A stretch of DNA of 64,000 nt from Phyllobates terribilis. Lineage: Eukaryota. The first letter of the stretch is position 1; each line of letters starts with the position of its first letter. Positions 16,201 to 59,500 of the stretch are shown here, piece after piece. The stretch lies in NCBI RefSeq assembly GCF_046119375.1, contig NW_027362764.1, positions 452,538,001 to 452,602,000 of the forward strand. Reading direction: 5' to 3'. The notes under the pieces are model-generated. The model worked only from the letters and a program-made list of their open reading frames with translations. It made no database searches and was not told where the DNA came from. The position numbers and the translations under genes are program-made.

Positions 16201-16842
16201 ACTATGGATTAACACATGTGGAATTATATACTTAACAAAAAAGTGTGAAATAACTGAAAATATGTCTTATATTCTAGGTTCTTCAAAGTAGCCACCTTTT
16301 GCTTTGATGACTGCTTCGAACACTCTTGGCATTCTCTTGATGAGTTTCAAAAGGTAGTCACTGGAAATGGTTTTCACTTCACAGGTGTGCCCTGTCAGGT
16401 TTAATTAGTGGGATTTCTTGCCTTACAAAAGGGGTTGGGACCATCAGTTGAGTTGTGCAGAAGTCTGGTGGATACACAGCTGATAGTCCTACTGAATAGA
16501 CTGTTAGAATTTGTATTATGGTAAGAAAAAAGCAGCTAAGTAAAGAAAAATGAGTGGTCATCATTACTTTAAGAAATGAAGGTCAGTCAGTCCGAAAAAT
16601 TGGGCAAACTTTGAAAGTGTCCCCAAGTGCAGTTGCAAAAACCATCAAGCACTACAAAGAAACTGGCTCACATGAGGACCGCCCCAGGAAAGGAAGACCA
16701 AGAGTCACCACTGCTTCTGAGGATAAGTTTATCCAAGTCACTAGCCTCAGAAATTGCTGGTTAACAGCAGCTCAGATTAGAGACCAGGTCACTGCCACAC
16801 AGAGTTCTAACAGCAGACACATCTCTACAACAACTGTTAAGA

Positions 16843-31844: not shown

Positions 31845-32414
31845 TCAGTCATTAAACACAAATAGTTCTTTTTCACTATTCAGTCCCCGCGGTCTTAAGG
31901 TGTTTAGTTTAAAGATCCATTCACTCTCTTTCCTTGACATGCTTTTAATAAAATCTCCTTGTCTCCAGTGTTTGTGGACTATTTGTATGCCTACTACTTG
32001 GATTCCTTTTGTAGACCCGTTATGTTTCTCCATAAAATGTTTAGAGAGAGGATGGCCCGTGTATTTGTTTTTAATATTCCGCAGGTGTTCGTTGATCCTA
32101 ATGTTAATAGGTCTTTTTGTTCTACCTACATACAGTTTCTCACACGGGCATAATAGCCCGTAGATGACCCCTGTGGTATTGCAAGTTATAAAGTCTGTGA
32201 TGGGGTATATTTCTTTCTGGTTGCTGACTGTGTGTTGTTTTAGTGTATTTAATGTTTTACACATCTTACATTTTTTGCATGGGAAGAAGCCTTTTAGTTT
32301 TTGTTGGAATGGGGTCTGTGGTTGCTTTTGGATAGTATTATTTCTCACGGTGGGCGCTATAATCGACCCTAGGTTACGTGCCTTTTTAAATATAAACTTA
32401 GGTAAGTTTGGCAC
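31845..32414 (-). pseudogene. Penelope GIY-YIG endonuclease domain
   Basis: CKKCKMC; TCNTTGVIYGLLCPCEKLYVGRTKR...RINEH; RKESEWIFKLNTLRPRGLN. Confidence 0.92.
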
Positions 32415-32582
32415 CTGGTCCCCAATTATCTTGTCATCTTTTAATATGTGCCAATGTTTTTCTATGATTTTTCTAAAGATGTGAGTGTTGGCAGAATAGG
32501 GTGTGATAATAGGGATAGTGGTATTGAGCCTAGGGTCATTTTGTTCTTGTTTAGTTGCGTTTACCTCAGTTAGGAGGTTGTG

Positions 32583-33185
32583 TCATGGTATTTTGGCTAT
32601 TTTTTCTTTTGTGTTTCTGAGGAATTGTGCAATATATCCCTTTTCCAAGAATTTATTTGTGAGTAGTTTTGCTTCCATATTGAATTCTTGGGGTTTAGAG
32701 CAGTTTCTGTGTAGTCGCAGGTATTGGCTGCGGGGGACGTTGAGTAACCAGTTGGGGAGGTGGCAACTATCTATTGGAATGTAGCCATTAGCGTCACTTG
32801 GTTTATGATACATGCGGGTCCGGATGCAGTTGTCCTCAATGTAAATGTTGAGGTCTAAAAAGTTAACTGTAGTGGTGCTGGTGGTAGATGTAAATTCCAA
32901 GAAAAAATCGTTCTTATTAATTTCCTCTATGAATGAGTTTAGTGATGATTGGTCACCTGACCAAATGAATAGGATATCATCAATGAATCTTCGCCATAGG
33001 ACCAGGTTCGTATGTGGGAGGCCTCCGGGGTGTATGGCTAAAGATTCCCATCGGCCCATGTAGAGATTTGCATAACTGGGTGTGAACCTGGTCCCCATGG
33101 CGGTGCCCAACTGCTGGGAGTAGTAGTCCCCCTCGTATAGGAAATAATTGTGCGTCAGTATAAATAACATGCAGTCCGTAATGAA
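32583..33185 (-). pseudogene. Penelope RT, C-terminal half
   Basis: GTAMGTRFTPSYANLYMG; WRRFIDDILFIW; FLDL. The N-terminal part of the supplied ORF is hAT sequence. Confidence 0.92.
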
Positions 33186-33689
33186 TAGTGTTGAGCCACC
33201 CCCGTAGTGTTCGAGTTCGGTTCGTTGAACACCCATGTGTTCGCCGAACTGTTCGTCGAACTGTTCGTCGAACACCTTCGAACACCGTTAAAACCAATGG
33301 CAGGCAAACAAAAACACATAGAAACACATAGAAAACACCTTCAAAGGTGTCCAAAAGCTGACAAACTGCTCAGAAGACACAACTAACACATGGAAAAGTG
33401 ACAAGTACATATAGTCATGCGAAAAGAAAAGAGGTGGAGGAGTAAAAGGAGGGGGAGACACAGATATAGGCATGTCATGCCCTTCTAAAATCCAAAAAGT
33501 GAGAAGCCGACACGGCCAGTCCGTTCCTGCCTGTGCCACCTCTGTGTCGCCGGGTTTGTGCCAGAGCCGCGGTGGACCCTGACGGCCAGCACCCCTATCC
33601 CAATACTGGTGCCTGTCCGCCGGTGGGTCGAGGCCCCCCACGGTGGGGGGGAGTAACATCTGCAGAAGAAAGACCATCTTCCAGCCAAA

Positions 33690-36600
33690 CTAAGATGTCG
33701 ACTTCTTTTCGTGGACAATGTGATACGATCCCATTCTTACGGACACGCCCATCGCTACAAATTCTAGTTGAGGCACAAAAACAGCAGGTGCTTCAACGGA
33801 TATCAAGTGCTCCTTCAAGTGGGCTCTCCATCACCTCAATTTCAACATCACAAATACTCCAGTCCTCAGAGGTGTCACTCCAATCGCACTTGCTTCCTCA
33901 CAGCTCCCAAGTCTCCAGCTGCCCGTCTGAGTATGGGGTAACACAGATGGCTGAGTCTGCCCAGCTGTTTACTCATACTATAGCCTGGGAAACGGAGGTC
34001 TGCTCCAGAGCTTCTGTTAATCCAGATGAGGAAATGATCTGATCCGATGCCCAGAATCTTTATAAGTTGGATCCAGGACCAGATGAAGAAGGTTCTGAGC
34101 ATAATGTAGACCCTTGTTCCCAAACTGTAACTCCTGTTGGTGGAGACAATGATGAAGACGATGATGAGACTCAAATGCCTGATTGGAGCGACAACTTGAC
34201 TTTTCGGTCAGGGCAGGAAGAGGTTGGCTCTGAGGGCGACGGGTGTGATAACACACAGGGTGATGATGACGAGGTTGGAGATCCCACTTACTGTCAACCC
34301 ACAGTCAGACAGTCGATGAGGTCAGCAGAGGAGGTGGAGGAGGATGTGACTAGCCCTGGGGATGGGGATGACTCGGTACCCGGGCATTTGCCTGGCCTTG
34401 GGGATGTCACGGTGGTCGGCTCCCTGGCCCGTACCCTGGGGTCTCTCTTTAAAAGGGTGGATAATTGTTAATTTTATAAGAGTTCATGACGCCACCTGTG
34501 GTATCTGGTGACAAGCACCAGCGCTGCAGCAGTCCACTGAGGCCGGTGATAAGGCAGCTCAATGGTATAGCTCCCCACAGGTGGAGCTAGGTCTCAGGGC
34601 AGCGTATGCAGGGGGAATGCAGGACAGGCGAGACCCAGCTGGGTCAGAGCAAGAACGGGAATGGACACGGTAGTCACTTCAGTACCTTTTACTGGTGGAA
34701 ATTCAGGCACATCCCGGAGCACTGTAGGGTGAAGGGTGCATATCATTATCCTCCCCAATGAGCGGGTGTAGGGCCTCCTGTTTCTTGCCTCTGCGTAGTA
34801 AGTTTCTGACCTGCCTGGAGCTAGGCCTAACTTTGTCTCTGTCCTGCGCTGGCTGACCTTGTGGTAGGGCCTTCTCTTGGAGTTCACGCTCCCAGTAGGC
34901 GGGGCCTAAGCATCTCCTGGCTCTGTTACATATCAGCACCTTAGCGATCCTGGGACTTGTAGTTCTCCAGTGATTCCGGTTATGCCTTACTGGGTCATAG
35001 AGATACCGGTAAGCTCGGATCCTGTGTCCGGTAAATGCTTCGGGGTGAGCTGGTTAAGCTCCTCTGCCCCTTATGTACTAACTCGCCACTCGCCTTCGGC
35101 CTACTCGGGCCCTCACTAGGCTATTCACACTAACGGCAGCTTGCCGCGCTTCACTGATCTTACGGCACCGGCACACCTTAAGCTCTATCTGGGCTCCCTT
35201 AATCTAGCAAGCAGGAGCCTCGTGCTCCACTGCTGAACTATTAACTGCGTTCTCTAGACTAGACTGAGCTCCACTGCAGACTGACCTCTCTTAGGCTTCT
35301 CTACTGCAGGAACTCTTCAGAGGAACTGAACTGCCTAGCTCCACCTTCCCTATTTATATCCCTAACGGGCTCCCTCTGCTGGTCTGAGGTGGAAGGTGGA
35401 GATGTGTGAATGTTTATGGGGGCCTCTTGTGGAGGATTCCATCAATGCACTCTTGTAGGATCTGTGATACCAAGCGCAGCGGGGCATCACAGATGCTATT
35501 AACGACGAGGTTAGGTTGCGCCTTCCTCAACAGAGACGGAGTACTGGAAGCACGTCAACAACTGCATCCTCAACCACAACTCTGCCTCTGACCACAAGTC
35601 GTAGTGGCTCTTCAGGTCACATGGGCTCTAAGCCTTGCATAGCCTGGGCATTTATTCAGATCGATAAGGATGACCCAACTCATGTTATCTGTAATATTTG
35701 TCAGCAAAAGCTAAGTTGAGGCCAAAAAATACATAGTTTGAGTACTTCATGCATGTACCGTCACATGGATATGAAGCATAAGTTGCAGTGGGAAGCTCAC
35801 TGTGCTACAATGCGGCCTAGCCGGCTGGGCCAACCACCGTCTGCCCCATCTTGTGCATCCGCAGCCTCTTCATCCTCTGTGACTGGGGGGACAGCAGTCA
35901 CACATGTTTTTGGACGCAGACCTGCCACCTGTTTACCCGCAACAGCCAGTGTGATTGGCAGGTCGTCAGTTCATTGGGAAGTGAAAAAACCTGCTAGTGT
36001 TGAGCGCTCTCCGACATCGAGAGCACCACCTTTGGATCAAGGCAACCTAACATGTCCGCCTGCATCTTCCTCACAGACCGGCAGTTGCCGGGGACACCCT
36101 ACTCAACACCGTCTAAGCACAACAGCCAGCCCTCGGTCCCTCAGATGTGGAAAAGTAAAAGACCATTTCCTCCTTGCCATGAGAAAGCTAAGAGGTTGAA
36201 TTTCACCATCTGCAAGCTGTTGGCTACAGAAATGCTGCCTTTCCACCTGGAGGACACAGAGGATTTTCAAGACCTTATGTCCGTCACAGTGCCCCAGTAC
36301 CAGATGCCCAGTCGGCACTACTTCTCAAAGAAAGGTGTGCCTGCGCTCCACTAGCATGTCGCACACAACATCACCGCTTCTTTGAGAAACTCTGTGTGTG
36401 ACAGGGTGCACTTCACCACAGACACTTGGACGAGAAGGCATGGACAGGGGCGTTACATGTCGCTGACTGGGCACTGGGTAACTATGGTGACAGCAGGACA
36501 AGGGGCTGCTGTCCAAGTCTTACCGTCCCCACGAGTTGTGTGTTAATCCTCTTTATCTCGAACTTCCTCCACTGCTTCTGCCTCCTCAACCTCCTCTCGG

Positions 36601-38398
36601 TCCTCCACCTGCACCCAAAGCCTGTCTGGTAATGCCACCTGCTTTCTAACTGCGCAGAAGGAATCCTGCACACCTCCTTACTTTGCTGGCAGCAGGGCTC
36701 AAAGCATCAGTGTTTACTTTGAAATGTCTGGGAAATGTGAGTCACACAGCTGAGGAGTTTTGGTCAGCTCTGGAGACCCAGTTTCATGAAAGGTTGTCTC
36801 CACTGGACCTGCAACCAGGGAAGGCCATGTGCGACAATGCTGCAAACCTGGGTGCGGCACTTCGCTGGGGCAATGTCACACACGTGCCTTGTATGGCTCA
36901 CGTGTTGAACCTGGTTGTCCAGCAATTTTTAGCCCACTATCCCGGACTAGATGGCCTTCTGCAGAGTGCACGGTCGCTGTGTGCTCACTTCCGCCGTTCG
37001 CATCCCGCAGTTCAACGACTTACATCTCTACAGAAGTCGTTGGGCCTGCCAGTTCACCGGCTGAAATGCGATGTGCCGACACGGTGGAATTCAACTCTGC
37101 ACATGTTGCAGCGACTGTGGCAGCACCGACAAGCCCTGGTGCAATGCGTTCTGACGTATAGCCTGGGCCAACGAGATCCAGAGGTGGGGCAAATCACGCT
37201 GGAGGAGTGGTCTCAGATCAGGGACCTATGCACCCTTCTGCACAGTCTTGAAATGGCGACGAAGATGTTTAGTGCTGACGATGCCATTATCAGCATGACT
37301 ATTATGGTGATTTACATGCTGGAGCACATGTTAAACAGAATTCGGAGTCAGGTGGTGGGACAAGAGGAGGTGGAGGAAGTAGAGGAGGAGTCGTATGCGG
37401 AAGGGATAACATCTCCAAGGTCCAGACGGTTGGCAGCACCAAGGCGGCAGGCATGGGAGGGTGGGGGAGAGGGATTAACCAGGGCGCATGGTAGCAGCCA
37501 AACTGTTGAGGAAGGTGCAGGAGCCGAGGAAGAAGTGGAGGACGAACTGGCAATGGGCATGGAAGACTCATCAGATGAGGGAGACCTTGATCACATTTCT
37601 GTTGTGCGAGGTTGGAGGGAGAGGGCAGAGGAAGGAAGCATGATTCTTACCTCGCTACCAACACAACAAGGACTTGGTCCTTCTGGATGCGCAAGACACA
37701 TGAGTGCCTTCTTGCTGCACTACCTGCAACATGACCCCCGGATTGTCAGAATTCGAAGTAATCCCGACTACTGGGTTGCCACACTCTTAGATCCCCGGTA
37801 CAAAAGTATATTTGCCGAAATAATTCCTGCCATAAAAAGGTATTGACGAATGCAGGAGTATCTGTTGCAGAATCTTACATGTGCTTTTCCACAAAACACC
37901 AGTGGTGCACGTAGTGAATCTCACAGTTCTAACTTGCCAACGGTGGGACTGTCGAGTCTTCATCACTCAAACAGTAACAGTAACACAGTATCTGCTGGTA
38001 ACAGCAATTTTGTGGAATCGTTTCACCACTTTTTTAGACCATCCTTTGCAAGGCCACAGGAGACAAGAAGTCTGACACATAGTCAATGCCTAGAGAGGAT
38101 GGTACAGGAGAATCTCCAAGTGAACATCGAAGCCATGACTGTGTCACTGGACCCTTGCTCATTTTGGTATTCCAATCTTGAAAAATCGCCGGAGCTCGCC
38201 ACTCACGCCTTGGAGATCTTGTCATGACATGCAGCCAGCGTTCTCTCTGAACGTGTGTTCAGCGCTGCTGGTGGTTTGCTGACAGATAAGCGCACGCGGC
38301 TGTCCACTGAGAATGTAGACAGACTCACGTTCATAAAGATGATCAAATCATGGATTCGCAAGGACATTTCTACCCCTGTGTCATCCTTGGGAGACTAA
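33690..38398 (+). pseudogene. hAT transposase pseudogene
   Basis: BED finger AWAF...VICNICQQKLS; FTTDTWT; CDNAAN; CMAHVLNL; CDVPTRWNST; SERVFSAAG...TDKRTRLS. Has stops, frameshifts and an LTR insertion; the start position is approximate. Confidence 0.92.
34347..35491 (-). mobile_element. Solo LTR (probably Gypsy-type) inside the hAT transposase
   Basis: TG...CA termini with an inverted TGTGA motif; GATG duplicated (34343-46 and 35492-95); removal restores EED-AINDEVRLRLPQ. Confidence 0.75.
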
Positions 38399-39257
38399 AA
38401 GCTTGGGGATTTGGTAAAATCACCTCACCAACCGTTTTAGGCAACAGTGGAGCAATTGATGCCAATTAACGCTAGAACGCATGACCATAAAAATCTACAC
38501 TTTCACATACCTGGGGCCCTTTAGGCCCGTGTGCAAATAACATGTAAAAACTCAAACTCAAATGACAAACAACTATATACATGAAGAATACCTAGAGTTT
38601 CAAAATTCTAACTAAAGCAATCTTGCAGAAAATAGAAAACAATTAACTGGGTGGGCCTGCAAGGCCACAGGTATGCGTTCTAGGGTTAAGTGGTGTCTGT
38701 GCCACAATTTTGGGAGTCCCCTTGCTGTGTCTTACGTGACGTTGGCATCGTCAATTCCAGGTGGGTTGGGTCGCACCCCCCCCTTTTAACTGTAAGAAAC
38801 TACATACACTATGGCTTGGGGTAACACAGATGGTTGAGTCTGAAGAGCTGTTTACTCAGAGGTCTGCTCCAAATCTTCAGTGTCTGCTAGTCAGCGTAGA
38901 ATTTTTAACTGCATCTAGCCTAGGCAATACTTTGGGCGTAGTAGCCCAGCTGCGAAGCAAGCTGCACCGCCTGTGTATCTAATAAGAATTTTTAAATTAA
39001 TCTAGCCTAGGCAGACTGTGGGGACCCCCAACCAAACCCAGATGCTCAGTCCCCCTACCGCCCCCCTTTCATGGACAACCCAATAATGTAACTCTTACAA
39101 CTGGATGGGTGAGGATCGGTCACAGCTTTATTAACTCTTTATACTCATTCCATTAGAAAGGCATTTTATTTCTAAAATAATTCAGCTTGTTGCAGCATTC
39201 CCTGGGTCCCCACTCCGGCAAGTTGGCCAACAAGTGTAACTCTCCAACATGTCCTTT

Positions 39258-39886
39258 CTATTTCCAGGCCACGGAGGATCCAGTGTACTCGTATGCAGGA
39301 CTCTGACCCCCACCCATCACTCTTAACGCTTGTTCCACTCCGTCCTGGAGTCCTGACAGGAATATGTCCAGTCCAATATCTATTAAGTGAACACCGTCGG
39401 GCCGTATGAGGCCTGCTTTATCTCCTTCCAGTTGTCGGTGTCGTATCACTACACCGCCTCTGTCTCTTCTAAATTTTTCCATCCGAATATTTATTACCCG
39501 CCTTGTCCATTCGATGGCCGTGATGTCTCGCGCACCTTGCCATACCGCTATCGGCACAATCTCTGACCATACTATAGCTAATTTTGTGAAAAATTCTCTG
39601 AAGCGCTCAGTGTCTAGTTTCATTATTGCCATTAGTTATGCGCTCTTGTGATGACCTAGGTTGTTTCCCCCGGCCTGTATAACTAAGATGACCGGACCTC
39701 TTGCCTCTCTCCCTACCTTGATTACCTCCATTAGTACCTGTGGCCATAGCAGGCCTCTAATACCTCTCCAGTTGAAATATGTGTTATGAAACTCTAATTT
39801 CCTCCCACCTGGGCGGACTTTCGCCCTTTTTTGTGCCCAATATATATACGAGTGGCCTATCACTCACACTGTTGGCTTAGCGTCAC
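39258..39886 (-). pseudogene. SGNH/GDSL hydrolase domain of the Ngaro-like element
   Basis: VIGHSYIYWA (block I), QAGGN (block III), PDGVHL (block V); internal stops. Confidence 0.85.
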
Positions 39887-39904
39887 CTGTAAAAGAAACA
39901 AACC

Positions 39905-40795
39905 ACGTTAGGATAACAAGTCCGGTCTTATGTATCTCGCCAAACACGTGGATCGCCATCTCCCTATCCTCTGAACTTCCGTTTCTGACAGTCCTGCTCT
40001 TGCTGCTTCCGTGGCCGCACCTATGCGGAATGAGTGTGTCCCGTAATCTTTGGGGTGGTTCCCTGCCGATGTTATGCATTTATTATATATAGCTTGGAAC
40101 AGGTATCTTGATAATGGCGTTCCATCAATGTGTGATACGAAGAAATTACTTTGTGATCTGATGGTTAGATATGTTTTTACTATTGTTACCCGACTCAGTG
40201 TACCGTTTGTGGGTTGTAGAAGTACCCAAGTACCCCTGCCCGCTGGAACCGTTTTCGATTGGTGTATGCGTACACGTATTGCATTATTGGCTATGACTAC
40301 TTACTGGTGTAATAAGCGTCCACTGGTGGTAATTTTGGATTGAGGGACTAATTCGCTTATACATAGCGCCCCGAAGAAGGCGATCACAAATGCAGTAGAC
40401 ATTAGTGTTGCTTCAAATTGTGAGTGTCATGTTAATGGTGTTAGGGATAAGATATGAGAAATCAGTTTTAGTGACACGGGACGGGACGTCTACATTCCTG
40501 ACTTGGCTGACCCCTTTTCCACCCTTTTATGGATTGTCTGATGATGAATCTTTGTCACATCTCCCCAATTCAGTAGTTGGAAGTGAAATGCTACTCCGGT
40601 CAGACACCGCTGCGCTGACGCCCCTGATATGCCCCTCATCATTAGCTGGTGGAGAAATTCTATGGTGAATTGTGATCTGGCTTGTTCACATTGGTCAACC
40701 CGTCTGCCTGCTACTAGTCGTGTCCACTCTTCCCATGCCTTACCGTATGCTTGCCACGTTGACGGGGCAACTGACGCTCTGATTAATGGCATCAA
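39905..40795 (-). pseudogene. Tyrosine recombinase of the Ngaro-like element
   Basis: RASVAPSTWQAYGKAW; HSFRIGAA; GRWRS...Y; frameshifted. Confidence 0.87.
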
Positions 40796-41124
40796 CTATT
40801 CGCCACTAGATCCCATAGGGAGGGTGGGCAACTGTTGCCAGATGGGTGGGCGTTGTGGAAGAGCTCTGTGAAAATCTGCCAATTGAATTGTTATAAAGCG
40901 TTAGCGGGCAGCTTTATACCCCTCAGCATAGTGGCTAGCGCGGACCCATACATTGTGTTTTAGGCACAGGAATACTAGCCTGCGTAGTAGGCCTAGCACT
41001 GGGAGAGACGATGATGCCATCTTATTAATGCAGTGCGCTAGGCTGGTGTTTTGTGTTATGAAGCGTATATTTTTGTTAGCCAGGCGCGCGTCCCATATTT
41101 CTATTGCTACCACTATTGGGAAAA

Positions 41125-43170
41125 ATTATTTTCAGGGCTAGATGCAGCTAAAAATTATTATTAATTTCAAAGCTGGTGGAGCTTGGCATAGATGGCCTAA
41201 TACAATGAGTCCCACACACTGCTAGAAGCCCAAATATTTTTTCAGAGGTAGATGCAGATAAAAATTATTTTTAATTTGCAACCTGATGGAGGTCAGTATA
41301 GATGGACTAATAGAGAAAGTCCCACACACTGCTAGAAGGCCAAATATTTTTTCAGAGCTAGATGCAGATAAAAATTATTTTTCATTTGCAACCTGATGGA
41401 GGTCAGTATAGATGGACTAATACAACAAGTCCCACACACAGCTAGAAGGCCAATATTTTTTCAGAGCTAGATGCAGACAAAAAATTATTTTGAATTTGCA
41501 ACCTGATGGAGGTCAGTATAGATGGACTAATAGAGAAAGTCCCACACACTGCTAGAAGGCCCAATATTTTTTCAGGGGTAGATGCAGAAAAAAATATATT
41601 CAGTTTGCAATCTGATGGAGGTCAGTATAGATGGACTAATACAACAAGTCCCACACACAGCTAGAAGCCCAATATTTTTTCACAGGTAGATGCAGAAAAA
41701 AATATATTCAGTTTGCAACCTGATGGAGGTCTGTATAGATGGATTAATAGAACAAGTCCCACACACAGCTAGAAGCCCAATATTTTTTCAGAGGTAGATG
41801 CAGAAAAAAATATATTCAGTTTGCAACCTGATGGAGGTCTGTATAGATGGATTAATAGAACAAGTCCCACACACAGCTAGAAGCCCAATATTTTTTCAGT
41901 TGTAGGTGCAGAATAAAATATATTCAGTTTGCAACCTGATGGAGGTCTGTATAGATGGATTAATAGAACAAGTCCCACACACAGCTAGAAGCCCAATATT
42001 TTTTCAGAGGTAGATGCAGAAAAAAATATATTCAGTTTGCAACCTGATGGAGGTCAGTATAGATGGACTAATACAACAAGTCCCACACACAGCTAGAAGC
42101 CCAATATTTTTTCAGAGCTAGATGCAGACAAAAAATTATATTCAATTTGCAACCTGATGGAGGTCAGTATAGATGGACTAATAGAGAAAGTTCCACACAC
42201 TGCTAGAAGGCCACATATTTTTTCAGAGGTAGATGCAGAAAAAAATATATTCAGTTTGCAACCTGATGGAGGTCTGTATAGATGGATTAATAGAACAAGT
42301 CCCACACACAGCTAGAAGCCCAATATTTTTTCAGAGGTAGATGCAGAAAAAAATATATTCAGTTTGCAACCTGATGGAGGTCAGTATAGATGGACTAATA
42401 CAACAAGTCCCACACACAGCTAGAAGCCCAATCTTTTTTCAGAGGTAGATGCAGAAAAAAATATATTCAGTTTGCAACCTGATGGAGGTCTGTATAGATG
42501 GATTAATAGAACAAGTCCCACACACAGCTAGAAGCCCAAATATTTTTTCAGAGGTAGATGCAGATAAAAATTATTTTTAATTTGCAACCTGATGGAGGTC
42601 AGTATAGATGGACTAATAGAGAAAGTCCCACACACTGCTAGAAGGCCAAATATTTTTTCAGAGCTAGATGCAGATAAAAATTATATTCAATTTGCAACCT
42701 GATGGAGGTCAGTATAGATGGACTAATAGAACAAGTCCCACACACAGCTAGAAGCCCAAATATTTTTTCAGAGGTACTGTAGATGCAGATAAAAATTATT
42801 TTTAATTTGCAACCTGATGGAGGTCAGTATAGATGGACTAATACAAGTCCCACACACAGCTAGAAGCCTAATATTTTTTCAGAGGTAGATGCAGAAAAAA
42901 ATATATTCAGTTTGCAACCTGATGGAGGTCTGTATAGATGGATTAGTAGAACAAGTCCCACACACAGCTAAAAGCCCAATATTTTTTCAGAGGTAGATGC
43001 AGAAAAAAATATATTCAGTTTGCAACCTGATGGAGGTCAGTATAGATGGACTAATACAACAAGTCCCACACACAGCTAGAAGCCCAATATTTTTTCAGAG
43101 CTAGATGCAGAAAAAAATTATATTCAATTTGCAACCTGATGGAGGTCAGTATAGATGGACTAATAGAATG
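41125..43170 (-). repeat. 110/111-bp satellite array, about 18 monomers, inside hAT copy 1
   Basis: Tandem GCTAGATGCAG...TTGCAACCTGATGGAGGTCAGTATAGATGGACTAATAG...CCCACACAC units; reverse complement of the array at 57350 onward. Confidence 0.97.
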
Positions 43171-44093
43171 ATGCTATGCCCAAAAGATTTTACTTCACTA
43201 GGTGCAGTAAAAAAATTCGTATTCTATACACAGTTGGTATATCTTGCAACACAGATAGGCTACTCCACTGACTAACACACTCTGCAATAGGCCAAAAAGG
43301 ATTAGCTTTGCTAGATTCAGCCAAATGCTGTGAAAAAAACTTGCACAGCACTGGCACAGACCTGCCTGGAAAAAACTGATAGGAACTGATGTAACCTAGT
43401 CCTGAAAAGGACTCCAATTACAATTAGTCTTTACTCCCACAACCTATCTATTTAAGAGCACAGACCTGCCTGATAAAAGTCATAGGAAATGCTGTAACCT
43501 AGTCCTTAAAAGGACTGCAATCACAACTATTCCCTACTCCCAAGCTATCTGTAGATTTGTGCGAAAATTGGCTTGAAATTAACAAGGTATAGTGCACACA
43601 GCAACAGCGGTGCCGTTTAACACGCAGCTGCAGCAGTGAGAAAATGGTGGCGACGGGGAAAATGGCTTGGTCTTATAGTGCAAGGACATGTGACATACAC
43701 TGCCAATGACACATGCCCTTGCTTGTGTGAAAAAAAGCACTTCGCTCCGTGTGTGCGCTGCTGATAGGCTGACAGATTGCACCTCCCCACTGTAAATGCG
43801 GGAAAGAGAAAAAAAAAATGGAGATCTTCATTGTTCCTGCAGAGATTCATCCCCTGCCCCTCCCCCCACCCCGCTGTACACTCAAACTGCGTATTAACAT
43901 TAATTTTCATCATTACTGAGAAAAAATCCAGTTATGATTTTGGTGCACGAACCGTTATCGAACATAACCTCGAACAGCCGAATTTTTCTCAAATTGTTCG
44001 TGTTCGCCGAACGGCTCGAACACCGCCCAAAACAGCTCGAATTTGAGATTGGCGAACAGTTCGAGTAGAACAACGCTCATCTCTAGTAATGAA

Positions 44094-45943
44094 CTTACTT
44101 TGTTCTTGGGGTATATTTTGATTAAGGAAATGGAGGGCAGCTTCACAACCTTTTGTGTGTTGGATATTTGTGTATAGGGATGTTATGTCCATTGTTCCCA
44201 TGATATAGTGGTTCTTCCACGGAATATTATTCAGTAACTGGATAGTGTGTTTGCTATCTTTCAGGTGGGAAGGAAGGTTTGGGACTAGGTCCTGTAGGTG
44301 GTGGTCTACCAGCCTAGAGAGGTTAGCTGTCAGGCATTGTATGCCAGAGATGACTGGTCTCCCTGGTGGGTTATTTTGGTCCTTATGTATTTTGGGTAGG
44401 TGGTAGAAGGCGGCTAGTGTGGGATATTGGATGTTGACATAGTCATATTCGTTTTTGTTAAGGTAACCCTCCTGAAGTCCTTTCTTAGTTAATGTACGTA
44501 GTTCTTCTTGGTAGATGTTCGTTGGATCGGAAGGGATGGTTTGGTAAGTTCTAGAGTCGCCCAGGAGTCTCAATGACTCTTTGTGATAATAGTCTCGATA
44601 GAGGATGACTATACCTCCCCCTTTGTCTGCTGTCCTGATTATTATATTTTTGTTTGTTTGTAATTGTTTCATGGCATTGGTTTCTGATTTTGTGAGGTTA
44701 TTCCTAAATTTTCGGCATTTTTTATTATTTAGACTATGGATGTCATCCGTAACATTTTTTTCAAAGGTGTTGAAGGCCTCTGAGTACTCTTGGAGAGGAT
44801 GAAACATAGATTTATTCTTTCGGTCAGTGTGTGTATATTTAGGTTGGTCTGTTTGGTCTGATATTTTTGTATTGCCTTCTTTCTTGGTGTAGCATTTTTT
44901 TAAAGCCAGTTGGCGCATGAATTTTTGGATACCTATATATGTTTGGAATTTATCCAGTTGTGTCGAGGGAGCATATTTGAGGCCTTTATTCAGTATGGCA
45001 GTTTCATTCTTAGATAATTGGTGTCTACTGAGGTTGAAGATAGATTTTTGGCTGTTTATTTCCTTTGGTTTGCTTTTTTTCTTTTGGGCGAGTTTCCCTC
45101 CCCTAGTGCCTCTTTTACATTTTTTCTTTTGGCCATTTGAAAAAAATCAACATTGCTGGTATGTTTTCGTATTAGTGGGCGCGAGGTAGTGGCTAGAACA
45201 GGGGTTGTTGGTAGTAGGTGGGGGGTGTTTTGGTTTGAGGAGATGGCCTCCTTATTAGGAGTGGTGTGGTTGGTGAGTTATCTGTTTCTTCAGTGGTGGT
45301 TATAAGGGGTAGGAACCTATTCTGTGTGTGGATTGGGGTATCGTGGTCATTTTGTGTTGGGTTGTGTTGTCTTGGGTCTGGTTCGTTTTGGGTTGGGGGG
45401 GATTCAGTGTTGGACGTTGGGTAAATAGAGATGTTGTCGATAGAGGTAATAGAGTTGGTTGGACTTCCGACTACTTCATCCAGGGTCTCAAAGAAGTTTA
45501 ATTGATCCTTCCCCGGTCATTGGTCCGGAAGGGGTACTGCATCTCTGCCAAATTTCGCTCTTTTTCTTTTACTATTTCTGTTTCTTTTTTGGTTGATCCT
45601 GTTCTAGATGCTATTTGTCATGCTCAGGATTTCAGGGTAGTTTTTGTATGGTTTGATTTCATTGAACAGTGCGTTGATTTGCTTTTGTTTTCAGTAGTTG
45701 CTTTTTCCTTTTGCTTATTATGAACTGGACGGTTTGTTTAGAGAATTCATTGAACATAGAGTTCCATTCCTCCAGGGTGGTTGGATCCCCTATGTCTCCT
45801 GATAGTGCCTTAGTCACTACCAAGCCAGATGGTACGATATTAAAGACTAGGTAGTGTTCGAGGGTGGCAACTTCACATAGGTCTCTCATTTCTTTTAGTA
45901 ATAATTGTTCGAGGGTTCTTAGTGAGTCTTTTATTGTTTTCAT
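44094..45943 (-). pseudogene. Penelope ORF, N-terminal half (N-terminal domain plus RT motifs up to SKFIT)
   Basis: TLEHYLVFNIVPSGL; IIRTADKGGGIVI; YHLPKIHK..PPGRPVISG; MDITSLYTNI. Confidence 0.9.
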
Positions 45944-47177: not shown

Positions 47178-47336
47178 TTAAATAAACAAAGCTTTGGTTC
47201 AGTCCAGTTCTTTTTATTCTTAATTAAGCAATTGAATAAAATTAACTAGGTGCTAGTACAAAAATGGTTGACAATAATCACTTCACACCACAAGTATGAA
47301 AATACAAATAAGACTGTTTTTTTAATTTACCATGTA

Positions 47337-48957: not shown

Positions 48958-49327
48958 TATATTAGTAGATCTATCTACAAAGTCGGTCACAGAAGATAAA
49001 GGAACATTTTAAATGTCAGTACCCATTAACTGCTAATATAGATTAGTTGCTTTATGAAATTTAACAGTTCAAAACATTTTTTAACAAGGTTTAAATATTT
49101 TTTCCATACTTTTTAAAAACTGTAAATTATTTTTAAGTTATCAATCTGCAGAGGAAATAAGCAAAAAGTGAGCTCTAAATCAAATATGTATTTGATGTGA
49201 TTATGCTTTGTCTTCAAAGTCTTTAAAGTACATTTGCACAAAGTCAGGGATTTTTTAGGATTATAGTCAAGTGTAAGAATAACCAGTTATACCAAACAGG
49301 TGATACTAATCATCATTTTCATATGTA

Positions 49328-50956: not shown

Positions 50957-51049
50957 TAGGTTGGAGGAGGCTTAAAACTGGGTGCAAAACTCTGCTACAA
51001 AGATGAGACTGTGAAACACAGTTTCATATCCAAGGTCACACACCACGCC

Positions 51050-52855: not shown

Positions 52856-53769
52856 TAGACATGAGCGGTGTTCGACTCAAACTGCTCGCCAATCTCAAAT
52901 TCGAGCTGTTTTGGGCGGTGTTCGAGCTGTTCGGCGAACACGAACAATTTGAAAAAAATTTGGCTGTTCGAGATTATGCTCGATAACTGTTCGTGCACCA
53001 AAATCATAACTGGATTTTTCTCAGTAATACTGAAAATTAATGTTAATACGCAGTTTGAGTGTTCAGCAGGGCAGGGGGAGGGGCAGGGGATGGATCTCTG
53101 CATAAATAATGAAGATTTCCATTTTTTTTTCTCTTTCCCGCATTTACAGTGGGGAGGTGCAATCTGTCAGCCTATCAGCAGCGCACACACGGAGCGAACT
53201 GCTTTTTTTCACACAAGCAAGGGCATGTGTCATTGGCAGTGTATGTCACATGTCCTTGCCCTATAAGACCCAGCCATTTTCCACATAGCCACCATTTTCT
53301 CACTGCTGCAGCTGCGTGTTAGACGCCACCGCTGTTGCTGTGTGCGCTATACTTTGAGTGTTAATTTCCAGCCAATTTTCGCACAAATCTACAGATAGCT
53401 TCGGAGTAGGGAACAGTTGTGATTGCAGTCCTTTTGAGGACTAGGTTACATCATTTCCTATGACTTTTATCAGGCAGGTCTGTGCTCTTAAATAGATAGG
53501 TTGGGAGTAAAGACTAATTGTAATTGCAGTCTTTTTGAGGGCTAGGTTACATCAGTTCCTATCACTTTTTGCCAGGCAGGTCTGTGTCAGTGCTGGGCAA
53601 GTTTTTTTTCACAGCATTTGGCTAAATCTAGCTTAGCAAATCCTTTTTGGCCTCTTTAAGTGTGTGTTAGTCAGTGGAGTAGCCTATCTGTGTTGCAAGC
53701 TACACCACCTGTGCATAGAATACAAATTATTTTACTGCACCTAGCCAAGTAAAACCTTTTGGGCATAGC

Positions 53770-54285
53770 ATCATTCTATTAGTCCATCTAAACTAACCTC
53801 GATCAGGTTTCAAATTCAAAATAATTTTTATCTGCATCTAGCTCTGAAAAAATATTTGGGCTTGAAGCAGTGTGTGGGACTTGTTCTATTAGTCCATCTA
53901 TACTAACCTCCACCAGGTTGCAAATTCAAAATAATTTTTATCTGCATCTAGCTCTGAAAAAATATTTTGGCTTGTAGCAGTGTGTGGGAATTGTTCTATT
54001 AGTCCATCTATAGTAACCTCCACCAGGTTGCAAATTCAAAATAATTTTTATCTGCATCTAGCTCTGAAAAAATATTTGGGCTTGTAACATTGTGTGGGAT
54101 TTGTTCTATTAGTCCATCTATACTAACCTCCACCAGGTTGCAAATTCAAAATAATTTTTATCTGCATCTAGCTCTGAAAAAATATTTGGGCTTGTAGCAG
54201 TGTGTGGTACTCATTGTATTAGGCCATCTATACCAAGCTCCACAAGCTTTGAAATTAATAATAATTTTTAGCTGCATCTAGCCCG
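53770..54285 (+). repeat. 110/111-bp satellite, about 5 monomers, inside hAT copy 2
   Basis: Same monomer as 41125-43170. Confidence 0.93.
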
Positions 54286-54294
54286 GAAAATAAT

Positions 54295-56330
54295 TTTTCT
54301 TCCCAATAGTAGTAGCAATAGAAATATGGGGCGCACGCCTGGCTAACAAAAATATACGCTTCATAACAAAAAACACCAGCCTAGCGCATTGCATTAATAA
54401 GATGGCATCATCGTCTCTCCCAGTGATAGGCCTACTACGCCGGCTAGCATTACTGTGCCTAAAACACAATGTATGGGTCCGAGCTAGCCACGATGCTGAG
54501 GGGTCTAACGCTGCTGCTAACGCTTTATCACAATTCAATTGGCAGATTGTCACAGAGCTCCTCCCCAACGCCCACCCATCGGGCAACAGTTGCCCACCCT
54601 CCCTATGGGATCTAGTGGCGAATAGTTGATGCCATTAATCAGAGCGTCAGTTGCCCCGTCGACGTGGCAAGCATACGGTAAGGCATGGGAAGAGTGGACA
54701 CGACTAGTAGCAGGCAGACGGGTTGACCAAGCCAGATTACAAGTCACCATAGAATTTCTCCACCCGCTAATGATGAGGGGCATATCAGGGGCGTCAGCGC
54801 AGCGGTGTCTGACCGGAGTAGCATTTCACTTTCAACTACTGAATTGGGGAGATGTGACAAAGTCACTAAAACTGATTTCTCGCATCATATCCCTAACACC
54901 ATTAACATGACACTCACAATTTGAAGCAACACTACTGTCTACTGCATTTGAGATCGCCTTCTTCGGGGCGCTATGCATAAGCGAATTAGTCCCTCAATCC
55001 AAAATTACCACCAGTGGAGGCTTATTACACCAGGACGTAGTCATAGCCAATAATGCAATACGTCTACGCATACGCAAATCGAAAACGGTTCCAGCGGGCA
55101 GGGGCACTTGGGTACTTCTACAACCCACAAACGGTACACTGAGTCAGGTAACAATAGTAAAAACATATATAACCATAAGATCACAAAGTAATTTCTTCCT
55201 ATCACACATTGATGGAACGCCATTATCAAGATACCAGTTCCAAGCTATATTTAATAAATGCCTAACATCGGCAGGTAACCACCCCAAAGATTACGGGACA
55301 CACTCATTCCGCATAGGCGCGGCCATGGAAGCAGCAAGAGCAGGACTGTCAGAAACGGAAGTTCAGAGGATAGGGAGATGGCGATCCACGTGTTTGGCGA
55401 GATGCATAAGACCGGACTTGTTATCCTAACGTGGTTTGTTTCTTTTACAGGTGACACTAACCCAACAGTGTGGGTGATAGGCCACTCGTAAATATATTGG
55501 GCAGAAAAAAGGGAGAAAGTCCGCTCAGGCGGGAGGAAAATAGAGTTTCATAACACATATTTCAACTGGAGAGGTATTAGAGGCCTGCTATGGCCACAGG
55601 TACTAATGGAGGTAATCAAGGTAGGGAGAGAGGCAAGAGGTCCAGTCATCTTAGTTATACAGGCAGGGGGAAATGACCTAGGTCATCACAAGAGCGCATA
55701 ACTAATGGCAATAATGAAACTAGACACTGAGCGCTTCAGAGAATTTTTCACAAAACTAACTATAGTATGGTCAGAGATTGTGCCGACAGCGGTATGGCAA
55801 GGTGCGCGAGACATCACGGCCATCGAACGGACAAGGCGGGTAATAAATATTCGGATGGCAAAATTTAGAAGAGACAGAGGCGGTGTAGTGATACAACACC
55901 GACAACTGGAAGGAGATAAAGCAGGCCTCATACGGCCCGACGGTGTTCACTTAATGGATATTGGACTGGACATATTCCTGTCAGGATCCAGGATGGAGTG
56001 GAAGAAGCGATAAGAGTGATGGATGGGGGTCAGAGTCCTGCATACGAGTATGCAGGATCCTCCGTGGCCTGGAAATAGAAAGGACATGTTGGAGAGTTAC
56101 ACTTGTTGGCCAACTTGTCGGTGTGGAGACCCAGGGCATGCTGCAACAAGCTGAATTAATTTAGAATTAAAATGCCTTTCTAATGCAATGAGTATAAAGA
56201 GTTAATAAAGCTGTGACCGATCCTCACCCATCCAGTTGTAAGAGTTACATTATTGTATTGTCAAGGAAAGGGAGGCGGTAGGAGGGCTGAGCGTCTGGGT
56301 TTGGTTGGGGTTCCCCACAGTCTGCCTAGG
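54295..56330 (+). mobile_element. Second copy of the Ngaro-like cargo (RNase H, YR with an internal deletion, SGNH)
   Basis: Same satellite/RNase H junction as copy 1; HSFRIGAA near 55300; GHS/GGN/DGVH. Confidence 0.88.
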
Positions 56331-56544
56331 CTAGATGCATTTAAAAATTCTTATTAGATACACAGGCGGTGCAGCTTGCTTCGCAGCTGAGCTACTGCGC
56401 CCAAAGCATTGCCTAAGCTAGATGCAGTTAAAAATTCTACGCTGACTAGCAGACACTGAAGCTTTGGAGCAGACCTCTGAGTAAACAGCTCTTCAGACTC
56501 AACCATCTGTGTTACCCCAAGCCATAGTGTATGTAGGTTCTTAC

Positions 56545-59500
56545 TAGAGATGAGCGTTGTTCGACTCGAACTGTTCGCCAATCTCAAATTCGAGCTGTTT
56601 TGGGCGGTGTTCGAGCCGTTCGGCGAACACGAACGATTTGAGAAAAATTCGGCTGTTCGAGGTTCTGTTCGATAACTGTTCGTGCACCAAAATCATAACT
56701 GGATTTTTTCTCAGTAATGATGAAAATTAATGTTAATACGCAGTTTGAGTGTACAGTGGGGCGGGGGGAGGGGCAGGGGATGGATCTCTGTAGGAATAAT
56801 GAAGATCTCCATTTTTTTTCTCTTTCCCGCATTTACAGTGGGGAGGTGCAATCTGTCAGCCTATCAGCAGCGCACACACGGAGCGAAGTGCTTTTTTTCA
56901 CACAAGCAAGGGCATGTGTCATTGGCAGTGTATGTCACATGTCCTTGCCCTATAAGACCAAGCCATTTTCCCAGTCGCCACCATTTTCTCACTGCTGCAG
57001 CTGCGTGTTAGACGGCACCGCTGTTGCTGTGTGCGCTATACCTTGTTAATTTCAAGCCAATTTTCGCACAAATCTACAGATAGCTTGGGAGTAGGGAATA
57101 GTTGTGATTGCAGTCCTTTTAAGGACTGGGTTACAGCATTTCCTATGACTTTTACCAGGCAGGTCTGTGCCAGTGCTGTGCAAGTTTTTTTCACAGCATT
57201 TGGCTGAATCTAGCAAAGCTAATCCTTTTTGGCCTATTGCAGAGTGTGTTAGTCAGTGGAGTAGCCTATCTGTGTTGCAAGATATACCACCTCTGTATAG
57301 AATACCAATTTTTTTACTGCACCTAGTGAAGTAAAATCTTTTGGGCATAGCATCATTCTATTAGTCCATGTATACTGACCTCCATCAGGTTGCAAATTGA
57401 ATATAATTTTTTTCTGCATCTAGCTCTGAAAAAATATTTGGGCTTCTAGCAGTGTGTGGGACTTGTTCTATTAGTCCATCTATACTGACCTCCATCAGGT
57501 TGCAAACTGAATATAATTTTTTTCTGCATCTAGCTCTGAAAAAATATTTGGCCTTCTGGCAGTGTGTGGGACTTGTTCTATTAGTCCATCTATACTGACC
57601 TCCATCACGTTGCAAATTCAAAATAATTTTTTGTCTGCATCTTGCTCTGAAAAAATATTTGGCCTTCTAGCAGTGTGTGGGACTTTCTCTATTAGTCCAT
57701 CAATACTGACCTCCATCAGGTTGCAAATTAAAAATATTTTTTTGTCTGCATCTAGCTCTGAAAAAATATTTGGCCTTCTAGCAGTGTGTGGGACTTTCTC
57801 TATTAGTCCATCTATACTGACCTCCATCAGGTTGCAAATGAAAAATAATTTTTTGTCTGCATCTAGCTCTGAAAAAATATTTGGCCTTCTAGCAGTGTGT
57901 GGGACTTTCTCTATTAGTCCATCTATACTGACCTCCATCAGGTTGCAAACTGAATATATTTTTTTTCTGCATCTACCTCTGAAAAAATATTTGGGCTTCT
58001 AGCAGTCTGTGGGACTTGTTCTATTAGTCCATCTATACTGACCTCCATTAGGTTGCAAATTGAAAATAATTTTTAACTGCATCTACCTCTGAAAAAATAT
58101 TTGGGCTTCTAGCTGTGTGTGGGACTTGTTCTATTAGTCCATCTATACTGACCTCCATCAGGTTGCAAACTGAATATAATTTTTTCTGCATTTAGCTCTG
58201 AAAAAATATTTGGCCTTCTAGCAGTGTGTGGGACTTTCTCTATTAGTCCATCTATACTGACCTACATCAGGTTGCAAATTGAATATAATTTTTTGTCTGC
58301 ATCTAGCTCTGAAAAAATATTTGGCCTTCTAGCAGTGTGTGGGACTTTCTCTATTAGTCCATCTATACTGACCTCCATCAGGTTGCAAACTGAATATATT
58401 TTTTTTCTGCATCTACCTCACAAAAAATATTTGGGCTTCAAGCTGTGTGTGGGACTTGTTCTATTAGTCCATCTATGCTGACCTCCATAAGGTTGCAAAC
58501 TGAATATAATTTTTTTCTGCATCTACCTCTGAAAAAATATTTGGGCTTCTAGCTGTGTGTGGGACTTGTTCTATTAGTCCATCTATACTGACCTACATCA
58601 GGTTGCAAACTGAATATAATTTTTTTCTGCATCTAGCTCTGAAAAAATATTTGGCCTTCTAGCAGTGTGTGGAACTTGTTCTATTAGTCCACTTATACTG
58701 ACCTCCATCAGGTTACAAATTCTAAATAATTTTTTGTCTGCATCTAGCTCTGAAAAAATATTTGGCCTTCTAGCAGTGTGTGGGACTTTCTCTATTAGTC
58801 CATCTATACTGACCTCCATCAGGTTGCAAATTGAATATAATTTTTTTCTGCATCTAGCTCTGAAAAAATATTTGGCCTTCTGGCAGTGTGTGGGACTTGT
58901 TCTATTAGTCCATCTATACTGACCTCCATCACGTTGCAAATTCAAAATAATTTTTTGTCTGCATCTTGCTCTGAAAAAATATTTGGCCTTCTAGCAGTGT
59001 GTGGGACTTTCTCTATTAGTCCATCAATACTGACCTCCATCAGGTTGCAAATTAAAAATATTTTTTTGTCTGCATCTAGCTCTGAAAAAATATTTGGCCT
59101 TCTAGCAGTGTGTGGGACTTTCTCTATTAGTCCATCTATACTGACCTCCATCAGGTTGCAAACTGAATATATATTTTTTCTGCATCTACCTCTGAAAAAA
59201 TATTTGGGCTTCTAGCTGTGTGTGGGACTTTTTCTATTAGTCCATCTATACTGACCTCCATCAGGTTGCAAACTGAATATAATTTTTTTCTGCATCTAGC
59301 TCTGAAAAAATATTTGGCCTTCTAGCAGTGTGTGGGACTTGTTCTATTAGTCCACCTATACTGACCTCCATCAGGTTGCAAATTCAAAATAACTTTTTGT
59401 CTGCATCTAGCTCTGAAAAAATATTTGGCCTTCTAGCAGTGTGTGGGACTTTCTCTATTAGTCCATCTATACTGACCTCCATCAGGTTGCAAATTGAATA

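Follow-up and report, generated by a model that had tools for sequence, protein, structure and literature searches.

The locus examined here raises the question of how a hAT-type DNA transposon came to hold a fragment of a tyrosine-recombinase (YR) retroelement, a solo LTR and a tandem satellite, and of how the assembled unit spread. Two copies of this composite lie in the window, the whole stretch of 64,000 nucleotides of Phyllobates terribilis DNA that was analysed. We consider it probable that they belong to a coding-dead hAT family of at least 6,500 members with fixed retroelement debris, that this family was likely moved in trans by a partner family, F3, and that it likely took the satellite-side end of F3 more than once via a shared 110-bp array.

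Anatomy of the two copies

Copy 1 is a 10.9-kb unit with hAT-type ends (33186-44085). It is flanked by an 8-bp target site duplication (TSD) with the same plus-strand letters at 33178..33185 and 44086..44093, and it ends in imperfect 11-bp terminal inverted repeats (TIRs; 33186-33196 and 44075-44085) with two mismatches. The 8-bp TSD, the shared short TIRs and the hAT transposase place it in the hAT superfamily. As the initial annotation had read it, the insertion splits an RT-like frame at F-I-T, the TSD coding these residues in both halves of the minus-strand frame. The host is presumably a Penelope-like element (PLE), with an upstream RT part at 44094..45146 and the rest of the RT and the GIY-YIG domain downstream at 31845..33177, both on the minus strand; this label leans partly on motifs because both RT halves are without a Pfam match and the GIY-YIG match is sub-threshold (21.5 bits against a cut-off of 22.6, E 3e-4).

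On the plus strand, End A (33186..33650; TIR and subterminal region) corresponds to the 3' end of normal-orientation relatives and is without an 820-bp segment present in older stages. The transposase relic (33651..38398, plus strand) has lost its start codon and about 33 codons, has stops and frameshifts common to its subgroup, and is 73-88% identical in amino acids to an intact 1,230-codon hAT frame (tblastn, four pieces). Solo LTR 1 (34347..35491; 1,145 bp, TG...CA, 4-bp TSD), which we take to be of Gypsy type, is fixed cargo; its junction has 4,998 exact matches, and an older copy shows its empty site. The site of a second solo LTR, empty in copy 1, is at 37230/37231. A 216-bp MITE (38470..38685) with a TTAA duplication, 13 of 16 terminal bases inverted and presumably piggyBac-like termini is fixed cargo of the younger subgroups. 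The native 3' repeats of the hAT (38890..39015, plus strand; 87-bp type) contain the insertion site of the YR retroelement, a junction with 9,451 exact matches, and are followed by the YR fragment (39016..41121, minus strand), the 110-bp satellite array (41122..43168, plus strand; about 19 copies of a 108-110-bp unit) and End B (43169..44085, plus strand), which corresponds to the 5' end of normal relatives. Every interior segment of the composite maps to hAT, LTR, MITE, YR element or native repeats. The relic, solo LTR, YR fragment and satellite named in the initial annotation are all present, but the relic is inverted relative to the element ends; that reading had missed the MITE and the LTR 2 empty site, as well as the inversion inside the element, its history in stages and the likely end exchange with the partner.

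None of the broken pieces of transposase, SGNH, RNase H and RT in the window has a Pfam match, and their identity is taken from intact relatives. The YR domain of the window fragment itself matches Phage_integrase above the cut-off (E 1e-6). The fragment, the 3' 2.1 kb of a 6.2-kb element, comprises part of RNase H, YR, SGNH and the 3' end in an Ngaro-like domain order and is coding-dead; by ORF order, free copies carry RT/RH, then YR, then SGNH on one strand. SGNH and RT of a free relative give weak Pfam matches (E 0.002 and 2.5e-5), both below the curated cut-offs. Split direct repeats (A1...B1 A2 B2), a feature of Ngaro-like elements, were absent from 11 free copies; in one free copy, L179, 276 bp of the 3' end are repeated once, upstream. 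Of the features of DIRS-like elements, ITRs with an internal complementary region and an MT domain, self-comparisons showed no long inverted termini and the frames scanned, short of that between RH and YR in an intact copy, no MT match. A piece of 18S rRNA occurs in relatives and is severed from the composite.

Copy 2 lies 9 kb from copy 1, in opposite orientation, and belongs to a different, older subgroup. The initial annotation had recognized a second unit from 52856 onward, and a unit of its own it is, with its own TSD on both sides, but it extends over 37.5 kb to 90386 (window numbering extended into the assembly) and is split: its B-end part (52856..56536, minus strand) resumes outside the window at 82937-90386. 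The interruption, at the equivalent of 38792, is a nested 26.4-kb F3 relative with its own TSD (56545-82936), of which the B end and satellite fall within the window (56545..64000, plus strand), and the satellite array at 57357-64000 is part of this nested element and not of copy 2 proper. The satellite/RNase H fusion said to be shared by the two copies is indeed present in both; the junction string quoted for it is exact in copy 1, but copy 2 has a variant that is 3 nt longer. That the cargo of copy 2 is flanking DNA gained via its outer end is ruled out by the TSD of the nested element and by the far end of copy 2.

Probable staged history of the interior

The stages of the composite are each seen as dispersed copies, and we infer their order. 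P1, the oldest, is a normal-orientation hAT with the retroelement (663 exact junction matches) that retains both YR retroelement ends inside the 3' repeats; P2 is the inverted form (313 exact junction matches). Structures with their own TSDs were found for three of seven P1-type and seven of ten P2 loci. A pattern aimed at free YR elements gave 559 matches, and 17 of the 18 loci extended, from 20 listed loci with 'uncut' RNase H, were older hAT-borne stages.

We suggest the following sequence: (i) the 3' repeats of a hAT that was still intact would have received a YR retrotransposon, whose middle would then have been lost (P1), (ii) the block from transposase to RNase H would have inverted, with loss at both breaks and removal of the start codon (P2), (iii) a new satellite type and B end would have been joined 100 bp deeper into RNase H, giving the junction of the initial annotation (W0), (iv) two solo LTRs would have inserted, (v) a crossover in the first satellite unit would have imported the F3 array and B end, repeatedly, (vi) the 820-bp A-end segment would have been lost and the MITE inserted, and (vii) solo LTR 2 would have been deleted in the window's subgroup (W5) by gene conversion over 143-182 bp, templated by an F3-like sequence without the LTR. 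The engine was likely excision-gap repair with template switching to abundant relatives or, alternatively, nested insertion into the array followed by inter-array deletion.

Given that both YR ends are kept in P1 and that LTR 1 and the MITE are each flanked by a TSD of their own, the cargo itself was gained by insertion and not by gap filling or template switching. The term 'Pack-type' in the initial annotation is accordingly not appropriate: the cargo is transposon DNA from nested insertion, and no captured host genes are present. An intact hAT at the time of capture is indicated by three P1 copies, two of which share a stop at codon 770. Between F3 and P1, changes at the three codon positions number 22/24/62 with no stops; from P2 to W5 they number 28/21/24 with four stops. 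The transposase decayed neutrally after the inversion, and the composite is non-autonomous: its start codon is gone, its stops and frameshifts are shared and its codon pattern was neutral while copies spread.

The inverted block could also be one P-type element nested backwards in another and trimmed by two deletions, a route that we regard as rather unlikely. Nesting of hATs in hATs is common among the loci read, and neither inversion break has clear homology, one of them carrying a short G-rich filler. However, no nested intermediate was found among 18 loci read, the ends, satellite and interior of P2 are all of P type, and, with the commonest codon taken for each column, P1 and P2 show no difference in 924 transposase codons, which fits either route without needing a second element. 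An inversion within a single P1 element is the route that we favor. Its A-side junction is present in all 12 systematic-sample copies that reach that point; the first pattern for this junction found 156 matches only, because the G run varies.

LTR 2, which copy 2 retains, has TG...CA ends with four extra bases on one side and without a TSD, and its junction has 5,187 exact matches elsewhere in the genome. A younger insertion was ruled out as the reason for the empty site, older subgroups carrying LTR 2 and W5 nesting inside W4. Removal in W5 is clean. W5 alone has the F3 letter at both flanking diagnostic sites, and it is without three derived changes of W2-W4; the likely gene-conversion tract around the empty site (37202..37344, plus strand) is defined by these two F3-diagnostic sites and also has two private changes.

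The partner family and a probable exchange of ends

The initial annotation had anticipated an autonomous partner with an intact transposase and the same TIRs, and F3 is such a family. Its junction has 57,484 exact matches, outnumbering the composite by about 9 to 1, and in a tally counted by hand on the best-scoring hits about 78 of 131 scored hits lie within full frames of 1,229-1,270 codons. An intact frame of 1,230 codons has zf-BED (PF02892) and hAT dimerisation (PF05699) domains, and its presumed catalytic motifs were placed from known motifs. Composite and F3 have the same terminal 12 bases at either end. The satellite lies upstream of the transposase in 19 of 20 F3 elements sampled (from the first 26 Mb of contig C1), and we therefore regard the array as native to these hATs and not, as had been supposed, as cargo. 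Shared ends and overlapping ages suggest that the composite was likely mobilised in trans by F3.

In the transposase tree 19 W2-W5 copies, one of them initially labelled W1, form one clade (support 99.7) and all F3 elements another (support 100). In the B-end tree both clades are rejected (AU p 3e-6 for W2-W5 and 2e-12 for F3) and the ends of composite and F3 interleave; keeping W4 and W5 together on this end is not rejected (p 0.056). These AU tests ran with the quick search, and the underlying alignments, 917 columns long, were projected from blast. End B of copy 1 differs by 1.1% from the nearest F3 end versus 10.5% from the nearest ancestral-stage end, and the B end of copy 2 is nearest to the oldest F3 copies. 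In copy 1 the first satellite unit is of the older type and the remaining units are of the F3 type; within that first unit the switch follows 14 diagnostic sites of the old type, and copy 2 switches elsewhere. Satellite typing left out five of six extra sample loci and several P2-or-older copies with unparsed arrays, which were judged by structure reads. A possible precursor, an F3 element nested in an array in the same direction, is found at locus C4:627.7, and no post-deletion swap intermediate was seen in the loci read.

The direction of exchange is inferred, the trees alone being symmetric. The same family and history would also result if ends had flowed mainly from composite to F3, with an intact transposase coming to lie between ends taken from a non-autonomous element that was successful. 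This direction finds some support in the A-end tree, which nests F3 inside the W series, in the 820-bp loss common to both families and in the symmetric ladders of the B-end tree, but we consider it improbable for several reasons. B ends of the F3 type diverge by about 10% from those of the P stages and turn up abruptly in the composite, six of 20 sampled copies of which still have ends of the old type; the oldest F3 copies already have this end, and F3 is the far more numerous family. In addition, the B end of one W3 copy differs by 0.2-0.5% from the youngest F3, while the copy that is its sister in the interior groups with W4. For the B end we thus prefer flow from F3 to the composite. Because neither clade is rejected in the A-end tree (AU p 0.28 and 0.12), the A end may have passed from composite to F3; an A-end swap, hinted at by distances, was set aside as being without AU-test support.

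Tentatively, the internal satellite may be the joint of the swap, the dead element repeatedly trading its end for that of the active helper, and such refreshing may be what sustained the mobility of the composite and drove its copy number from the hundreds into the thousands; we hold this to be possible, with the balance somewhat against it. Since the TIRs are identical in old and new B ends, a swap was unnecessary for TIR recognition, and it may have been neutral and a by-product of how abundant F3 is. If the satellite is the joint, DNA-transposon families here would evolve as pools in which ends and interiors recombine, and neither reverse transcription nor unequal crossing-over would ever have made most of the 'retrotransposon' and 'satellite' copies here.

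Dispersal, cargo and known systems

The satellite/RNase H junction has 6,566 exact matches genome-wide. For all exact junction counts (6,566, 9,451, 4,998, 5,187, 313, 663 and 57,484) there were 0 control matches; the counts are lower bounds, and some copies are incomplete. In a systematic sample from the first 120 Mb of contig C1, 10 of 20 loci have both ends with a matching TSD, as do 13 of 20 best-hit loci; the median length of the composite is 11.7 kb. Among 25 end-to-end copies, including the two of the window, all TSDs differ (22 exact, three with one mismatch), which bears out the proposal that the unit spread as one piece, and did so thousands of times. That the cargo was fixed and non-coding before transposition is likewise upheld: the SGNH stop is present in copies 1 and 2 and in 32 of 32 aligned hAT-borne copies, and a stop in the YR domain is common to every subgroup.

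It is very improbable that the cargo was kept as useful to the element, be it through an LTR promoter, RNA antisense to the transposase or a product of the YR/SGNH part. Thousands of copies still carry the cargo, 19 of 20 sampled copies have a nearly complete YR piece, and antisense RNA from the inverted transposase is conceivable; against this, stops and frameshifts are shared, third-position bias is absent after capture, and LTR 2 was lost without sign of cost. An origin of the copies by segmental duplication or local inversion, for which the closeness and opposite orientation of copies 1 and 2 might speak, is refuted by junction matches on at least 12 of 13 large contigs, by the different TSDs, by flanks that are unrelated save for two copies sitting in the satellites of others, and by the different subgroups of the two window copies.

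In the Ac/Ds system a non-autonomous hAT is moved by an autonomous partner. The non-autonomous hATs nDart/Dart and dTok, like the composite, combine a dead transposase with an 8-bp TSD and with short TIRs that an intact partner has as well; the composite differs in not being short, in being as long as its partner, in having an interior and a B end from different lineages and in the greater number of the partner (PMC4423477). The PIF/Harbinger element MtPH-A6-4 of Medicago is likewise a DNA transposon with nested retrotransposons, internal inversions and subterminal tandem repeats that vary, features attributed to abortive gap repair, but it numbers 23 copies, of which individual ones show inversion or nesting, whereas in the composite, an animal hAT, each change founded hundreds to thousands; MtPH-A6-4 is not known to exchange ends with a partner (PMC2213677). 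Animal Pack-TIRs, such as Pack-hAT-N8_XT, like the composite a frog element (PMC8277862), and plant Pack-TYPE elements (PMC8903248) also carry foreign DNA via repeated transposition with distinct TSDs. Pack-TYPE elements are, however, defined by an interior of captured host coding or non-TE DNA (PMC8903248), and Pack elements acquire host, non-TE or coding DNA by template switching, in contrast to TE DNA by nested insertion in more than 6,500 copies here (PMC8277862, PMC8903248); four of 281 animal Pack-TIRs are multicopy, and the frog example has three copies (PMC8277862). Frog MITE satellites (Xstir/Xmix, miDNA4) are tandem repeats inside a DNA transposon that spread together with it, whereas here the array lies in full-length autonomous hATs, up to 12 kb long, and would mark the end-swap crossover (PMC9659126). 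The amphibian Ngaro-like elements DIRS-53_XT and DIRS-54_XT share the order RT/RH, YR, SGNH and a length of about 6 kb with the YR element, of which most fragment copies here were spread by hAT and not by reverse transcription; the DIRS-54_XT consensus is, like the free relatives, without split direct repeats (PMC9210276). A search of open-access text yielded no account of a family of this kind or of ends being exchanged via an internal satellite.

Repeat landscapes would count thousands of these cut-and-paste copies as young YR-retrotransposon, LTR or satellite DNA. Each historical stage survives as a dated burst, so the long-open question of how non-autonomous elements track changing helpers becomes testable. 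By rough arithmetic, 6,566 composites at the median length amount to about 77 Mb, or 0.7% of the 10.6-Gb genome, and 57,484 F3 elements of about 11 kb to about 0.6 Gb; one hAT group is therefore visible in the bulk of the genome.

Composite copies and their dispersal

Composite copy 1 (33186-44085) ends in imperfect TIRs of 11 bp; the 8 bp duplicated identically on either side repeat the F-I-T of the RT-like frame split by the insertion, as described in the initial annotation. Its interior holds a transposase relic, a solo LTR of 1,145 bp with a 4-bp TSD and a 216-bp MITE flanked by TTAA, together with a minus-strand YR retroelement piece of 2.1 kb, a 110-bp repeat in about 19 units and a terminal region of 917 bp. 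Copy 2, with its own TSD, starts at 52856 as annotated and ends at 90386 (window numbering continued); it is interrupted by a nested relative of 26.4 kb (56545-82936), to which the long array at the window's end belongs. Copy 2 carries copy 1's solo LTR and, in addition, a second solo LTR (LTR 2; continued coordinates 84322-85508). LTR 2 has four extra bases on one side and lacks a target duplication in all six copies checked, reflecting either aberrant integration or later deletion. At least three further relatives lie just past the window, and in the loci read one such hAT frequently sits inside another, within arrays and transposase relics.

In the 10.57-Gb assembly, the satellite/RNase H junction has 6,566 exact pattern matches, the retroelement 3' junction 9,451 and the two LTR junctions 4,998 and 5,187, with no matches to the reversed control patterns. 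We read 20 best-hit loci and 20 systematic loci (one in five of the first 100 junction matches in the list, contig C1 only). Both ends and a matching TSD were found in 13 and 10 of these loci, respectively; in the others, the far end is truncated or lies past the fetched DNA, usually behind a nested insertion. Including the two window copies, all 25 TSDs are different, the outcome that the annotation had named as support (left and right agree exactly in 22), and the flanks are unrelated except in two copies that both lie in another copy's satellite. Copies free of interruptions span a median of 11.7 kb, and arrays measure 0.1-5.6 kb (median 2.4 kb; 19 of 20 sampled). At two loci (S14, L143-L144; S20, L155-L156) the array and the satellite-side (B) end recur in tandem duplications that keep the same 8-mer at the flank, a pattern that unequal crossing-over in the arrays of already inserted elements could produce.

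An intact partner and surviving stages of the lineage

The search for an autonomous partner with an intact transposase and the same TIRs identified a family, F3, whose terminal bases equal those of the composite at both ends. The F3 transposase frame has 1,230 codons with zf-BED and hAT dimerisation domains, and frames of at least 1,229 codons were counted by hand in about 78 of 131 F3 matches (best-scoring matches only). Going by the 57,484 matches to its diagnostic junction, F3 is a major component of the genome; paired TSDs were found in 9 of 20 sampled loci. F3 runs from the B (5') end through satellite, start codon, transposase and 3' repeats to the A (3') end. Because the array lies upstream of the transposase in 19 of the 20 sampled loci, the 110-bp satellite is native to these hATs and not cargo as initially proposed; by the same order, the transposase block of the composite is backwards relative to its ends.

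F3 is itself composite (e.g. L074:2245 to L109:3588), with 3' repeats of an older satellite type and duplicated transposase pieces, and carries a solo LTR that is absent from its oldest copies. At both the composite RNase H junction (window 41122) and the F3 3' junction (about L032:1690), the old-type repeat breaks off at one position within its unit (to within 0-3 bases); this common cut point may reflect a shared origin or a fragile AT-rich palindrome. Inside the A end of normal-orientation relatives (F3/F4, F4 being another relative in the same hAT group) lies a decayed 18S rRNA piece (L033:150-480 and L035:2954-3129, shortly past the window) scoring 80-82 bits against Rfam RF01960, above the gathering score. 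The piece is a true capture of host sequence and probably numbers tens of thousands of copies; in the composite, it disappeared with the inversion break.

The 18 loci with an uncut RNase H motif comprise one free 6.2-kb YR element, seven copies of a type termed P1 and ten inverted copies (P2). P1 (663 junction matches) is a normal-orientation hAT with the YR element inside its 3' repeats, its middle deleted and both retroelement ends present where seen. P2 (313 junction matches) has lost its start codon along with about 33 codons, and on the A side 1.8 kb is missing; no clear homology was found at its two inversion breaks, one of which contains a short filler rich in G. The window family (W) has the same A-side break as P2 and therefore descends from it. 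In W0 the satellite type and the B end are both new and are joined 100 bp further in, and there are no LTRs; W1 gained both LTRs; later subgroups lost 820 bp of the A end and gained the MITE; and W5, to which copy 1 belongs, lacks LTR 2. Interior trees reproduce this ladder, with W5 inside W4, and within-group divergence declines from about 4-5% (P, W1) to about 1% (W5). We suggest that the stages arose in the order P1, P2 and W0-W5.

The cargo was already coding-dead on arrival in the hAT. The SGNH stop, correctly annotated as a fixed cargo trait, is present in all 32 aligned hAT-borne copies (the codon is identical in 31, and one has a different stop codon) and in two of seven free copies, and a YR stop is common to all subgroups. 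Free YR copies vary mostly at third codon positions (e.g. 16/11/29 among themselves), and changes from P2 to W5 show no third-position excess (YR 6/4/4, SGNH 5/2/2). The transposase behaves likewise: changes between F3 and P1 are 22/24/62 with no stops, and those from P2 to W5 are 28/21/24 with four stops. No frameshift is common to P1 and P2, so P1 had likely kept its autonomy at the time it took up the cargo, as judged from three P1 copies; two of these have the stop at codon 770 in common, and this CpG codon is probably prone to mutation.

The cargo is 85-90% identical to free elements. Its description as Ngaro-like holds for the domain order and not for split direct repeats, which were found in none of 11 free YR copies; YR-plus-SGNH retroelements are reported for amphibians in the open-access text of PMC9210276. 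Two of ten free YR elements (L178:481-7751, L179:1086-9577) adjoin or lie inside cargo-like copies of their own sequence, and L179 has a 276-bp copy of its own 3' end that precedes its 5' end; the recombinase may target related sequence. Many near-identical YR elements with the same flanks (L183-L186 and others on contig C12 and unplaced small contigs) suggest one insertion inside a tandemly repeated unit.

Probable exchange of ends with the partner family

The ends and the interior of the composite differ in ancestry. The B end of copy 1 differs by 1.1% from its closest F3 counterpart and by 10.5% from its closest P counterpart, whereas the distances of its transposase are 4.1% to P and 6.4% to F3. 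In the transposase tree, 19 W2-W5 copies form one clade (support 99.7) and the F3 copies another (100). At the B end, composite subgroups are intermixed with F3 copies of comparable age and AU tests based on quick searches reject both clades (W2-W5, p 3e-6; F3, p 2e-12); such tests rejected neither a W4+W5 grouping at the B end (p 0.056) nor the W2-W5 and F3 groupings at the A end (p 0.28 and 0.12). In one W3 copy the B end is 0.2-0.5% from the youngest F3, which does not hold for its interior sister. Satellite units comprise a single old-type unit by the retroelement and F3-type units beyond, the switch falling after 14 diagnostic sites in W3-W5 and elsewhere in copy 2; the TIRs themselves are unchanged by the proposed end swap. 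In the systematic sample, 14 of 20 B ends are F3-type (at least 94% identical to the window's) and 6 of 20 are of an 87-89% type. Given that the B type jumps, that old F3 copies already have the F3 type and that F3 is ninefold commoner, the direction of exchange is probably from F3 to the composite.

All eight W5 copies agree with F3 at positions -29 and +99 relative to the LTR 2 empty site and lack a 3-bp insertion and two substitutions common to W2-W4; W letters resume at -53 and +129. Loss of LTR 2 thus appears to be a conversion-like tract of 143-182 bp from an LTR-free template, within which two more changes are private to W5. Exchange is not limited to the array, as a few smaller F3-like patches sit elsewhere in the relic.

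We suggest that F3 mobilises the composite in trans and that ends are exchanged by excision-gap repair with template switching, a route put forward for MtPH elements that bear tandem repeats (PMC2213677, open-access text). Alternatively, ends could be exchanged by nested insertion followed by deletion between arrays, and a candidate precursor for this route lies at C4:627.7.

Related elements and other repeats of the window

In its mode of operation the composite resembles non-autonomous hATs of the Ds or nDart type, and it behaved as a hAT in the tests for this group. The label Pack-type was dropped, as the definition in the accessible text of PMC8903248 requires host coding DNA. In the accessible texts, animal Pack-TIRs are nearly all single-copy, a multicopy frog example having three copies (PMC8277862), and frog MITEs with internal satellites are already described (PMC9659126). 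Thus, the single ingredients are known; in open-access text we found no precedent for a family of this scale, for the survival of its stages or for ends exchanged repeatedly at a satellite inside the element.

Minisatellites and a decayed telomere-type repeat occupy 1-3450, 25810-27790, 11500-12800 and 6381-6606 of the window, including an array of 13-bp units and one of 30-32-bp units that occurs twice, in opposite orientations. Elements with long inverted repeats, which from their translations we take to be Tc1/mariner-like, lie at 3512-5140, 16101-18371, 47332-48962, 28758-29618 and 49326-50958, and have 92-95% mutual identity.
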